Virus record (IMG/VR): IMGVR_UViG_3300030294_000015
Span: 1 to 64,000 of that record
From: a virus
Length of the DNA: 64,000 nucleotides
Reading direction: 5' to 3' (one strand)
Each line of letters opens with the position of its first letter. Within the stretch, counting starts at the first letter, position 1. Position numbers and translations under genes: made by a program. Shown here one piece after another: positions 740-56,709 of the stretch. Under the pieces are notes generated by a model. It searched no databases. It saw nothing but the letters and a program-made list of their open reading frames with translations, and was not told the origin of the DNA.

Positions 740-2785
740 ATGGAAGATGAATTATTAAAAGGATATAAAGATGGTTCTAATATATCCTTATTAAATGTAA
801 TATATAATTATCCTAAAAAAGATGAAAATGGTAAATGGGAGAAACATGATAATGCTTCTTTTATTTTTTATGATTTTAATGATAATAAGATGAAGATACA
901 AGAAATAGAAGATGTACCTTATGAATTCTATACTGTAAAAGAAGACAGAGTTCCAGATAAACAACAATTCTTTATGAGTAGAAATGATGTAACTCCAGTA
1001 AGTTGTAAATATAGAGCATTAAATAAAAAAGTTGCTGAATATACAGACCAAGTAGAATTATTTAAGTCTAATATTCAAAATGGTAATGCCAGAGAAAATT
1101 ATAAATTACATTATGATCCTAGAGTCATATCCTCTGATATGCATATAGAAGATAAATTAAGAAATATGTTTGATAGAAGATATATAAATGCACCAATACC
1201 AAAAGTAACTAAAGCATTTTTCGATATAGAATATGATGGTAAAGATTATAAAGGTATAGGGATAGATAGAAATGGTACATGTCCTATAAATGCTATATCA
1301 ATGATAAATGAAGTAGACCAAAGAATATATGTATTCTTATTAAGAAATAAAGATAATCCTCTTATAGAAGAATTTGAAGGATATGCTAATACAAATCAAG
1401 TGCATATAGATTTGAGAGAATTTATAAAAGAAAATGTTGGTGGATGGAAGAATGAAATAAGATATGGACTGGATAAGTATGAATATAAATTTAATTTCTA
1501 TGATGATGAAGTACAATTAATAACTGATTTATTTGTTGTAATGAGTTGGTTCAAACCTAGTTTTATATTAGCATGGAATATGGCATTTGATATTCCTTAC
1601 ATACAAAGAAGATTAGAAAACTTAGGTGTAAATCCACAAGATATAATGTGTAATTCGGATTTCAAACATAAAGTATGTCGTTATTATATAGATGATAAAA
1701 AAGATAAAGATGGTAAAATGAAAAAGATAGAAGGTAGAGGAGATTTTGCCACTATATCTTCTCATTCAGTATTCCTAGATCAAATGATTCAATTTGCATC
1801 TAGAAGAAAAGGACAATCTAACTTTATAAGATATACTTTAGATTATATAGGTGAATCTATATGTAATGTAAGAAAATTAGATTACTCACATATTACAAAT
1901 AAGATTCATGAATTACCATATAAAGATTATAAAACATTTGTTTTCTATAATATTATGGATACAGTAGTTCAATATTGTATTGAGAAGAAAACAGGTGATG
2001 TTGATTATGTATATACGAAGTCATTAATGAATAATGTAAGGTATAGTAAAGTACATAGACAAACTACTTATCAAACAACTCGTATGAGTAAAGAGTTTTA
2101 TAATTATTATGAGGATGGTTTAATTCTAGGAAATAATATAAATGCTTCTAATCAAAAACCTAATGAAAAATATCCAGGAGCTTATGTAGCTGATCCTATG
2201 AAATTAAATGATTATTGTAAACAAAAGATAAATGGACGACCAGTAAATATTATACATAATGGGGTTGACTATGATTATTCAGCACAATATCCAAATGAAG
2301 TTAGAGAAAATAATATGGCTCCACATACACAAATAGCAAAAATAATAATAGAACAAGCTGTATATGCTAATGAAAATCCATTTAAGAATAAATACTATAC
2401 TAGAGGGGGTAATTTCTTAGAAGATTATATGACTAGAAGTATATTAGAATTATGTAGAAAATGGTTTAGTCTAGGGTCTTATGGAGAATTAATAGATGAT
2501 GTAATTAATTATATAAATAATAAGAATCTTATGTATAATCCTACACCATTTATAGGAAATAATATGGTGTTTATGAGGAAGACTAATCCTAATGAATTAA
2601 TACAGTTTATGGTTAGACAACCATTAGGAGAGAAGAGTATATTTATGAGACGGAATAATATACCAGATTATTCTTTAGCAGATAATATAAATGTGGATGA
2701 TTATGTATACAATAATGATAGAAGATATGTTAAACAATCTACATCAGATAAAAATGCACAATTAAAATATGAAGAGGAGGAATAG
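740..2785 (+). CDS. Family-B DNA polymerase, N-terminal part (3'-5' exonuclease plus motif A) of a split polymerase
   Basis: ExoI FFDIEYD, ExoII LAWNMAFDIPY, ExoIII YNIMD, YPGAYVADP and motif A DYDYSAQYPN. Motifs B and C are absent here and occur at 20915-24840. Confidence 0.92.
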   Translation: MEDELLKGYKDGSNISLLNVIYNYPKKDENGKWEKHDNASFIFYDFNDNKMKIQEIEDVPYEFYTVKEDRVPDKQQFFMSRNDVTPVSCKYRALNKKVAEYTDQVELFKSNIQNGNARENYKLHYDPRVISSDMHIEDKLRNMFDRRYINAPIPKVTKAFFDIEYDGKDYKGIGIDRNGTCPINAISMINEVDQRIYVFLLRNKDNPLIEEFEGYANTNQVHIDLREFIKENVGGWKNEIRYGLDKYEYKFNFYDDEVQLITDLFVVMSWFKPSFILAWNMAFDIPYIQRRLENLGVNPQDIMCNSDFKHKVCRYYIDDKKDKDGKMKKIEGRGDFATISSHSVFLDQMIQFASRRKGQSNFIRYTLDYIGESICNVRKLDYSHITNKIHELPYKDYKTFVFYNIMDTVVQYCIEKKTGDVDYVYTKSLMNNVRYSKVHRQTTYQTTRMSKEFYNYYEDGLILGNNINASNQKPNEKYPGAYVADPMKLNDYCKQKINGRPVNIIHNGVDYDYSAQYPNEVRENNMAPHTQIAKIIIEQAVYANENPFKNKYYTRGGNFLEDYMTRSILELCRKWFSLGSYGELIDDVINYINNKNLMYNPTPFIGNNMVFMRKTNPNELIQFMVRQPLGEKSIFMRRNNIPDYSLADNINVDDYVYNNDRRYVKQSTSDKNAQLKYEEEE

Positions 2786-2789
2786 AATA

Positions 2790-3410
2790 ATGAAATTAAT
2801 TGAATTAGAAGAACTAATAAATCAATTTAAGATTATTAAATCAGATTTAGTATATCTTAGAGGGAATAATATATTTGGATTTGATTATTCACATACTATA
2901 GTGAAAGAAACATCATTCTGTAATCCTAATTCATATTTGTTGGTTATTCAGATTAAAGATTGGTTAGATTTGTTTAAACAATTAAAAGAATCAAATACTA
3001 AATATGAAAATAAAGTAATTGATGAAATTCAAGGAGACTATATATCATATAAAGGAAAAAATTATTATTATAAATCATCATTTATAATCAGTGAATTAGA
3101 TAGAAAAATAAGTACTATTCATAATATTATGAATAGTATAAAACCTGTTGAATTTATTGAAGATGTAAAATCAGATACAAACTTTAATACTACTTTAGAT
3201 AAGGAATTTAAAAGTGATTGTGGAGTTTACTTATATAGGGTAAAAGAATATGTAATGACTATTTATAAAACTCTATTAGGAATTACATCAAAAGATAATG
3301 TGTCATTGAATATCTATAATTATTCTGATTTATATTTTTTATCTAAGTATGTATTATATAATAAAAAACAATCTATATCCATATATTTAAATTTAAGAAA
3401 ATTACCATAA
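2790..3410 (+). CDS. Putative sliding clamp (PCNA/gp45-like fold); tentative
   Basis: Directly follows the polymerase gene (GAGGAGG RBS, ATG 2790), ~206 aa. FDYSHTIV resembles PCNA MDSSHVSL, and the C-terminal alternating beta-strand pattern resembles the PCNA end. Confidence 0.35.
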   Translation: MKLIELEELINQFKIIKSDLVYLRGNNIFGFDYSHTIVKETSFCNPNSYLLVIQIKDWLDLFKQLKESNTKYENKVIDEIQGDYISYKGKNYYYKSSFIISELDRKISTIHNIMNSIKPVEFIEDVKSDTNFNTTLDKEFKSDCGVYLYRVKEYVMTIYKTLLGITSKDNVSLNIYNYSDLYFLSKYVLYNKKQSISIYLNLRKLP

Positions 3411-3445
3411 AAGGAACGAAAGTTCCTTTATTTTTTACCTCACGA

Positions 3446-55269: not shown

Positions 55270-56314
55270 TATGAATAATGAAACTATTAATAGAATAAAT
55301 AATAGATTATTAGAAATCCCAGGTGCTAAGTTGGTACAAGGAAATCGATGGATTATTATTAGATGTATGTATTGTGGTGATTCATTAAATAGTACTCATG
55401 CACATTTCGGTATTCATTTACCAGTGAATGAAGATGATTTATATTACTTTAATTGCTTTAAATGTCATACTACTGGAAGATTGACAACAGATACATTAAT
55501 GACATTCGGTATTTTTGATGTGGATATTATAAGTGGATTATCTAATTGGAATAAAAGAGTATTATCTAGACCTGAAAATAGAATATTTAAAGATCAAATA
55601 TATATGGTGAAAAATTCACATATAAATCAATCTAAATTAACTGATGCTAAATTGAATTATATAAATAATAGATTAGGAATTAATATGACTTATAAAGATA
55701 TACTAGATAAAAAGATAATTCTTAATATAAATGATTTATTAGATGAAAATCATATTACTAAACTTACTAGAGACCCTAATGTAGTAAAACAACTAGATGG
55801 TGGGTTTCTAGGTTTCTTATCTCAAGATAATGCTTTTATTAATATGAGAAGATTAGTTAATGAAGAAAAAGTAATGGAACCTCTAAGAAAGAGATATGTA
55901 AATTATAATCTATTTGGTAAATTTGATAATACTCAAAAATATTATACTATTCCTACTACAATTAGATTAGATAATCCTAAAAAGATAAAATTAAAAATAG
56001 CAGAAGGACCTTTTGATATTTTATCTATATTTTATAATTTATCTAACCAAGATACTGATAATTGTATTTACTCATCTATAACTGGTTCTGGATATATTAA
56101 CATATTAGAATTCTTTCTTATTAAGAAAAGATTAATAAATATGGAAGTAGATATCTACATGGATAGTGATATAAAAGAAAGAGTATTATATGCTATAAAG
56201 CAATTATTAGACTACTTTGGTGTACCTTTACGGCTTCATCGTAATATTTATCCAGGAGAAAAAGACTTCGGTGTCAAACATTCAAAAATACAGGATCAGA
56301 TATTGAATATCTAG
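55229..56314 (+). CDS. DNA primase (Zn finger + TOPRIM)
   Basis: RCMYCGDS..H..FNCFKC, IAEGPFD, YMDSD and KDFG. Confidence 0.8.
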   Translation: MYMKYRSMCYGFPNMNNETINRINNRLLEIPGAKLVQGNRWIIIRCMYCGDSLNSTHAHFGIHLPVNEDDLYYFNCFKCHTTGRLTTDTLMTFGIFDVDIISGLSNWNKRVLSRPENRIFKDQIYMVKNSHINQSKLTDAKLNYINNRLGINMTYKDILDKKIILNINDLLDENHITKLTRDPNVVKQLDGGFLGFLSQDNAFINMRRLVNEEKVMEPLRKRYVNYNLFGKFDNTQKYYTIPTTIRLDNPKKIKLKIAEGPFDILSIFYNLSNQDTDNCIYSSITGSGYINILEFFLIKKRLINMEVDIYMDSDIKERVLYAIKQLLDYFGVPLRLHRNIYPGEKDFGVKHSKIQDQILNI

Positions 56315-56364
56315 AAGGATAGGTCAAATCCTATCCTTTATTTTATAGAAAGAAGGAATTTAAT

Positions 56365-56709
56365 ATGATATACATAATAAATGATGAAGAACAAGAAAAA
56401 GTTAAGAAAGCTTTAGCTGATAATTCTATTGAATTTAAAAACTTTGATACTCCGTTAGATGCTTTTGTATATGAAGAATCTATATATAGAACAAATGAAT
56501 ATGAAAAAGAAAATAATGTTAAATTTACTGAAGAATGTAGAGATACAATGGAAGGAACAATAGAAGGATTTTTGTCTACAAATAATTTTTTAGATAATGA
56601 TCACTTATGTGATTTAGTTGAAGAAGCTATTGATAATGCAATGGATTATTGTAAAAAAGAAAATCTAAAAGTATTTATGACTAGAGAAGAAGAAACAAAG
56701 GAGGATTAA
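56365..56709 (+). CDS. Small acidic hypothetical protein with a C-terminal FMTR motif
   Basis: AGAAGGA RBS; E/D-rich. Confidence 0.6.
   Translation: MIYIINDEEQEKVKKALADNSIEFKNFDTPLDAFVYEESIYRTNEYEKENNVKFTEECRDTMEGTIEGFLSTNNFLDNDHLCDLVEEAIDNAMDYCKKENLKVFMTREEETKED

Follow-up and report, generated by a model that had tools for sequence, protein, structure and literature searches.

A recurrent FMxR peptide on non-virion DNA-acting proteins of an AR9-like giant phage and a candidate sliding clamp that may read it

The IMG/VR record IMGVR_UViG_3300030294_000015 is a 94-kb viral contig (G000; 25% G+C) whose genes for replication and transcription have distant homologues (26-31% identity) in Bacillus phage AR9/PBS1 and in jumbo phages of Staphylococcus and Listeria. 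These genes include a split family-B DNA polymerase and the split subunits of a non-virion multisubunit RNA polymerase (RNAP). In the first 64 kb of the contig, hereafter the window, an earlier note had drawn attention to a four-residue peptide, Phe-Met-x-Arg (FMxR), that recurs in proteins acting on DNA. We analyzed this tag in the window, in the rest of the contig and in a complete relative, G001 (IMG/VR UViG_3300029984_000001; 263,571 bp), whose proteins are 73-75% identical to those of G000. An unannotated open reading frame (ORF) with a predicted sliding-clamp fold (2790-3410, plus strand; 206 aa) was found 5 nt past the end of the gene for the N-terminal polymerase subunit, and we consider it the candidate reader of the tag.

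The exact FMxR sites of the window start at positions 971, 2606, 2642, 19385, 20871, 21916, 24072, 29937, 35491, 46966, 47059, 52182, 53377, 53440 and 56674, and an FMRK is present at 2570. These 15 sites, all recovered at or within 6 nt of where the earlier note had put them, lie in 11 of the 64 ORFs called within the window. Both parts of the DNA polymerase are among them. Pol-N, the N-terminal (exonuclease) subunit (740-2785, plus strand; phrog_3011, E = 1e-45; homologue of AR9 g132), has a tail from residue 596 to about residue 650 in which three copies of the tag, FMRK (2570), FMVR (2606) and FMRR (2642), are aligned at a spacing of 12 residues (2570-2653). The catalytic subunit is encoded on the minus strand by exon 1 (24397-24840) and exon 2 (20915-22363; PF20286), the latter with LMER and FMER at 21905-21916. 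The C-terminal half of the non-virion RNAP beta' subunit (27843-29954, plus strand; phrog_3015; homologue of AR9 g154) carries TIFMKRE at its extreme C-terminus (29937-29948). Another tagged gene (52173-55269, plus strand), split by a group I intron, encodes the fifth non-virion RNAP subunit, placed at the AR9 gp226 position by synteny with AR9 g225-g228; its exon 1 opens with MKKFMTRD (52182-52193), exon mapping puts exon 2 at about 54700-55269, and its BLAST match to AR9 g226 is weak. A superfamily 2 (SF2) helicase (33955-35571, plus strand) bears FMMR in its tail (35491-35502) and a variant, IIMRR, five residues before the stop. The helicase of G001 has FMLR and FMKR at the two corresponding places, so that the second tag is spelt IIMRR in one phage and FMKR in the other; Ile is the residue used in a neighbouring lineage whose tag is IMxR.

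The other tagged proteins of the window are five HNH endonucleases and a small acidic protein. Three of the nucleases are phrog_953 paralogues: a free-standing one (18558-19421, minus strand) with N-terminal KKFMTRD at 19374-19385, a second (20065-20901, minus strand) with N-terminal KKFMTRD at 20860-20871, and a third (46942-47826, plus strand) with two N-terminal tags (46966 and 47059), for which the ATG at 46957 is the likely true start, giving MKNFMTR. The two phrog_59 paralogues are borne on introns, one (22846-24102, minus strand) with N-terminal RKFMYR at 24061-24072 and one (53284-54432, plus strand), inside the gene for the fifth RNAP subunit, with FMTR (53377) and FMIR (53440). Two different nuclease families carry the tag, as the earlier note had said. 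The small protein (56365-56709, plus strand; 114 aa), which had no Pfam match, has the C-terminal tag KVFMTREEETKED at 56674-56685.

Counts in G000 were made on a simple set of 98 non-overlapping ORFs (28.8 k residues). FMxR occurs in this set 16 times, 15 of them inside the window and one at contig position 80400, compared with 1.2 occurrences expected from composition (Poisson P = 3e-13). When each protein was shuffled in 2000 runs, the mean count was 1.09 and the highest 6, in agreement with the earlier estimate of about one chance match in this proteome. Among all 8000 triples of the form XY.Z, FM.R ranks first in G000, the runner-up having P = 4e-5. The codon pattern TTY-ATG-NNN-(AGR/CGN) was found 16 times in sense frame 0, three times in the other sense frames, twice in antisense and never in intergenic DNA, and the Phe and Arg codons at the tags track genome usage with synonymous variation. 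Considering both the frame specificity and the codon choice, we conclude that the signal lies on the peptide, as had been proposed; an origin at the DNA level, whether a promoter, another DNA motif or codon bias, was ruled out by the same two tests. In G001, 41 FMxR sites were found against 3.4 expected (P = 7e-30). No excess was seen in AR9 (3 against 3.0 expected), LPJP1 (2 against 2.6) or MarsHill (0 against 3.6), AR9-type control phages of similar base composition and gene repertoire. The 11 tagged proteins of the window had been described as unrelated, which does not hold for the three phrog_953 and two phrog_59 paralogues, but at least 11 independent sites remain after discounting paralogy, against the 1.2 expected. 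Three other triples are also strongly enriched in G001, namely YC.G (30 against 2.7), WT.G (20 against 1.4) and CI.G (32 against 4.9), which probably reflects a repeat domain or one extensive family of paralogues.

The extended consensus of the tag is [M/L]-K-x-F-M-x-R-[D/E/V]. In G001 only the exact Phe, Met and Arg are enriched, and FMxK, FLxR, FIxR, YMxR, LMxR and IMxR occur at background level; this restriction points to one specific pocket. Of the 41 tags of G001, 15 are no more than 15 residues from the called N-terminus, and many of these read M-K-x-F-M-x-R with the initiator Met at -3; another 18 fall in the last 60 residues before the C-terminus, nine of them in the last 15. The expectation for such near-end positions was about 6%. 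In the window, a GGAGG stands 8 nt upstream of the starts of both MKKFMTRD (52173) and MKNFMTRG (ATG at 46957). Tags are repeated in tandem three times each in the Pol-N tail (at intervals of 12 residues) and in the beta-C tail of G001, and twice each in the tail of the SF2 helicase and in the N-region of the ligase.

The earlier note had placed the tags mostly in terminal or linker tails. The apparently internal tag of the polymerase catalytic subunit is not buried: it falls inside a stretch of about 68 residues inserted after motif C and absent from AR9 (BLAST against AR9 g152). The insertion is conserved in G001, holding LMER and FMER in G000 and FMER twice in G001. The exception is the FMSR at Pol-N residue 78 (971-982). 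An alignment of this conserved position reads F/Y-hydrophobic-x-K/R in every lineage whatever its tag, with FVSR in the IMxR lineage, and the motif is therefore probably a structural coincidence of the folded core.

By homology to annotated AR9 genes and PHROGs, the tagged proteins comprise Pol-N, the polymerase catalytic subunit, an NAD ligase, a DnaB-like helicase, the SF2 helicase, an Mre11/SbcD-like phosphoesterase, the non-virion RNAP subunits beta-N, beta-C and beta'-C together with the protein at the gp226 position (four of five subunits, beta'-N having no tag), at least six HNH endonucleases from two different families and about 15 small proteins of unassigned function. The tag is absent from the portal, sheath, terminase, head and protease homologues, from the homologues of AR9 'virion proteins', from all three virion-RNAP pieces and from GroEL, which confirms that virion genes lack it, and it is likewise absent from gyrase A, gyrase B, UvsX, primase, SbcC and the RecD-like helicase. 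A protease site or a T4-type capsid-targeting signal was also considered and rejected: the virion proteins are untagged, and cleavage would remove only 1-7 residues.

Group I-type introns with HNH ORFs split several essential genes of these phages, at 20915-24840 (minus strand) and 52173-55269 (plus strand) in the window and in the genes for GyrB, beta'-N and the polymerase catalytic subunit in G001. In G000 the polymerase gene is interrupted at motif A, exon 1 ending in ..DTNSLYG, and in G001 at motif C. In the latter phage, the exon-1 ORFs run into the intron and have similar ends, ..CVPSL for GyrB and the polymerase catalytic subunit and ..CVGTSL for beta'-N. The N-terminal 26 residues of the intron HNH at 22846-24102 (..RKFMYRMDEDYTPTFYTD) resemble the tagged polymerase loop at 21860-21916 (..IKFMERMEDDLDYSFYDD), and this nuclease may have copied the tag and its linker from the host polymerase gene.

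Conservation of the tag was compared at two distances. G000 and G001 agree at 9 of 9 Phe, Met and Arg positions in the three tags of the Pol-N tail, while the two 8-residue linkers match at only 3 of 16; the tagged tail of beta' is also conserved in G001. In more distant homologues the tag is respelt, and the three columns of the Pol-N tail switch in concert across 11 aligned lineages, with one spelling per lineage: IM/VMxR, LFxR, AMxR, VMR, VYR, LFxK or IMxK. The C-terminus of beta' co-varies with it and reads IIMKR, LLFKR, IAMRR, IVYKR or PLFVK. Within a phage, Pol-N and beta' carry the same peptide (FMxR/FMxR, IMxR/IMxR, LFxR/LFxR, AMxR/AMxR, LFxK/LFxK and VIxF/VIRF), and where the two proteins were paired through contigs of identical length, LFxK occurs with PLFVK, VLRF/VISF with VIRF, VVEF/AVSF with AVIF, and AFIF with AFKF. 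The alternative peptides IMxR, LFxR, AMxR and PAF[IV]K are found at the tails of Pol-N, beta', beta, DnaB, the SF2 helicase and the ligase of distant relatives. In the complete genome G004, for example, P-A-F-[IV]-K is carried by DnaB, beta-C (twice), beta', the N-region of the ligase and the Pol-N tail, with PFIR on the SF2 helicase. This pattern occurs 11 times against 1.8 expected, but it was chosen post hoc, as the spellings of G003, G004 and G005 were all read off orthologous tails, and an unbiased scan of three-residue patterns did not bring up the tags of these three genomes. Among the control phages, the non-virion RNAP beta' of MarsHill (133637-135550) ends in ..SMFDPLFDFDI, which we take to resemble the acidic-hydrophobic clamp tails of T4/RB69, and the DnaB-like helicases of AR9 (3583-5268) and LPJP1 (204109-205881) end in ..IPF, like bacterial single-stranded DNA-binding protein (SSB) tails.

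The recoding of one short peptide together on many unrelated proteins argues for a single co-evolving reader. On the enrichment, the terminal position, the island-like conservation and the lineage-wise co-variation, the view that selection maintains FMxR as a short linear motif on non-virion DNA-acting proteins, with a shared reader partner, is strongly supported.

The product of the ORF at 2790-3410 is the likeliest candidate for this partner. It had no sequence match in Pfam, PHROG or the PDB, and its 59 family members had none in Pfam, but a profile search returned 85 relatives, each of about 200 aa. AlphaFold2 modelled the monomer with a predicted local distance difference test (pLDDT) score of 93.4 and a predicted TM-score of 0.88 on an alignment of 59 sequences; with three sequences the pLDDT was 35. 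The top 50 Foldseek matches of the model are all sliding clamps (beta-clamp, T4 gp45, PCNA and 9-1-1), VIA-align superimposed it on PCNA and T4 gp45 with Z scores of 8.5-9.2 over 175-181 residues, and its structural neighbours in the ESM Atlas are clamps. The protein is thus confidently predicted to fold as a two-domain sliding clamp of the gp45/PCNA type. A member of the family lies directly after Pol-N in five of the five tag-bearing relatives tested. In AR9, MarsHill, LPJP1 and JD-Fnp1 the family is undetectable, and these phages also lack the Pol-N tail; in AR9 the position after Pol-N is occupied by g131 (107800-108393), annotated as a DnaQ-like exonuclease, which was rejected as a clamp homologue (hhalign probability 0.1%). 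A search for related loci with a narrow clamp alignment returned only the species of G001.

We therefore suggest, with a probability of roughly 0.55, that FMxR is the private sliding-clamp interaction peptide of this lineage and that the product of 2790-3410 is its reader. In this mechanism, a phage-encoded gp45/PCNA-type clamp would be made from the gene directly after the polymerase gene and would form a ring on DNA. Its clients, that is, both polymerase subunits, the NAD ligase, the DnaB-like and SF2 helicases, the Mre11/SbcD-like nuclease, the non-virion RNAP through four of its five subunits, and many HNH endonucleases, would present one to four copies of the tag, either on insertion loops or on short flexible tails at the N- or C-terminus. 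By fitting into a single pocket of the clamp once this is loaded on DNA, the tag would concentrate the enzymes on phage DNA. Tagged RNAP on the clamp would link transcription to DNA that is replicated or nicked, as happens in T4, and the homing endonucleases, by acquiring the tag, would have gained the same access to DNA. Of the two functions put forward in the earlier note, a hub such as a clamp or a compartment licence, we favor the former, because a clamp-fold gene adjoins Pol-N, because the clients form a replication toolbelt plus RNAP as in T4, and because gyrase, UvsX, primase and SbcC are untagged; the absence of the tag from these and from the RecD-like helicase fits a clamp toolbelt better than a general signal for access to DNA.

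Several observations weigh against this suggestion. FMxR matches no published clamp-motif consensus, neither the PIP box nor QL[SD]LF nor the hydrophobic-acidic tails of T4, and its fit to APIM is loose. Four tagged subunits of one RNAP, and more than 30 tagged proteins overall, exceed any known phage clamp toolbelt. No clamp loader was found in G001 with PF13177, a search that divergent loaders could escape, and three AAA+ genes of G001 have a C-terminal ATPase domain and thus a classical AAA architecture, unlike RFC/gp44. Finally, 19 ORFs of G001 have the same phyletic distribution as the tag, occurring in G003-G005 and missing from the AR9 types; three of them are tagged, which leaves about 16 alternative reader candidates, so that phyletic distribution by itself is not enough to pick out the clamp. 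At BLAST sensitivity this profile did not recover the clamp itself, and it is uninformative.

The alternative that survives best is that the tag docks on another phage hub, such as an SSB-like protein, a scaffold or condensate protein of the replication factory, or the N-domains of tandem AAA+ proteins that remodel or unfold tagged proteins, with the clamp serving the polymerase only. The strictness of the motif, its terminal placement and its co-variation by lineage demand one reader without naming which, and the roughly 16 untagged ORFs with the same profile provide candidates. Terminal tags are typical of AAA+ recognition, and the three AAA+ ATPases of G001 mentioned above (L132-L134; 323, 340 and 390 aa) are encoded in tandem at 34721-38252, are paralogous and had no BLAST match in AR9; this trio could be an alternative reader or remodeller. 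Neither a partner protease nor a link of specificity to the tag was identified. However, a BLAST match to it was found in just one (G005) of the three relatives with clamp and tag, the internal tag in the polymerase loop and the tandem arrays suit docking more than threading, and no specific candidate matches the functional logic of the clamp. We regard another hub as a tentative option that is distinctly less probable than the clamp.

It has also been proposed that the tag is an address by which proteins enter a protected replication compartment or are kept there. The individual tagging of four of the five non-virion RNAP subunits beside untagged virion RNAP pieces, the use of both N- and C-terminal positions, as in sorting signals, and the presence of the tag on selfish nucleases are all in line with such an address. 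The search for a chimallin homologue gave no support to this licence: neither PF25677 (Chimallin_Phikzvirus) nor phiKZ gp54 matched anything in G000 or the complete G001, whereas the phiKZ control scored 1121 bits, although a very divergent shell protein could escape a model built for Phikzvirus. AR9-like phages are regarded as free of chimallin (PMC13282480). Moreover, gyrase A and B, UvsX, primase, SbcC and the RecD-like helicase need DNA and yet are untagged, and sorting needs no tandem arrays on polymerase tails. A compartment address is accordingly unlikely in our view. We give as little credence to the broader form of the idea, in which a chimallin-independent compartment, a condensate or an AAA+-driven gate would admit only bearers of the private peptide and the homing endonucleases would have copied the password.

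The proposal that the excess has no function and arose from paralogy, shared 5' gene cassettes, intron-related duplication or composition could appeal to the five HNH paralogues among the 11 tagged window proteins, to the likeness between an intron HNH N-terminus and the polymerase loop and to the structural look of Pol-N residue 78, but it is effectively refuted by the controls, as at least 11 sites are independent, the signal is frame-specific with synonymous variation, the tag is kept where its flanks diverge, three composition-matched phages show no excess and unrelated proteins are recoded in concert by lineage.

Recognisable sliding clamps are reported to be missing from giant phages with their own multisubunit RNAPs, and it is an open question how replication and late transcription are coordinated in these phages (PMC13648698). 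The locus described here supplies a concrete candidate clamp for an AR9-like giant phage, together with a four-residue code, readable from sequence, that lists its probable clients, including the 15 or so proteins of unassigned function. If the tag docks on the clamp, T4-like clamp-coupled transcription would have evolved on a phage-encoded multisubunit RNAP, and homing endonucleases would hijack a replisome hub. The sister lineages, which recode the tag on all clients together, represent a natural experiment, and a strict private code of this kind would offer orthogonal peptide-receptor pairs for testing. The tag is also a simple annotation rule for the DNA-acting proteins of uncultured jumbo phages.

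For import into the phiKZ-type nucleus, we know of no linear signal. This import resembles the FMxR system in that DNA-acting proteins are selected and virion and metabolic proteins are excluded (10.1101/2024.03.27.586873), and differs in that no shell protein was detectable in G000 or G001. In phage Mu, late transcription is tied to a sliding clamp by MuC, as is proposed here, but Mu uses the host beta-clamp and a single activator protein (PMC12867686). The Chimalliviridae share with the present phage a family-B polymerase split into DNAP-N and DNAP-C and a non-virion multisubunit RNAP (PMC13648698). No free clamp has been recognised in them, and a clamp-derived domain in Rhc, an RNase H-clamp fusion that is a subunit of their split polymerase, serves replication and late transcription; this domain lacks oligomerisation elements and binds DNAP-C directly (PMC13648698). 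In contrast, the clamp candidate described here is a free-standing two-domain protein, its putative clients carry a peptide code, and no chimallin was found.

The clients of PCNA and the beta-clamp carry the PIP box, APIM (RWLVK, RFSLK) or QL[SD]LF at disordered ends (PMC7261172; PMC9690074). FMxR is like these motifs in being short, in lying at disordered termini and in occurring on many DNA enzymes, and those motifs all bind one hydrophobic pocket. It shares with APIM, loosely, a basic-aromatic-hydrophobic-x-basic shape (PMC7261172), and the sister-lineage tags LFxK/R and VIxF are nearer to the classical clamp motifs. Unlike the latter, FMxR has an obligatory Met, its leading Lys is usually at -2 and not at -1, and it is private to one phage lineage and recoded in relatives.

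The closest comparison is with the gp45 clamp of T4/RB69 and its clients (PMC2988020, PMC7892883; PDB 1czd, 1b77 and 6drt, all among our Foldseek matches, the last being a T4 ligase peptide on gp45). The FMxR peptide is basic (K-x-F-M-x-R), unlike the hydrophobic-acidic T4 peptide; it is found at N-termini, C-termini and loops, often in tandem, and on about 30 proteins, homing endonucleases included. It is also attached to core subunits of a phage multisubunit RNAP, whereas T4 uses sigma and co-activator proteins that bind host RNAP. No loader resembling gp44/62 was found, and the similarity of the clamps is one of fold, at about 10% identity. Nevertheless, a phage-encoded two-domain clamp, predicted in our case, lies beside the replication genes in both systems, and a short peptide on flexible ends is common to DNA polymerase, ligase and the transcription machinery, just as T4 gp43, gp55 and gp33 have interchangeable clamp-binding C-termini (PMC2988020). 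As in T4, replication and late transcription would be tethered to the same DNA-loaded ring.

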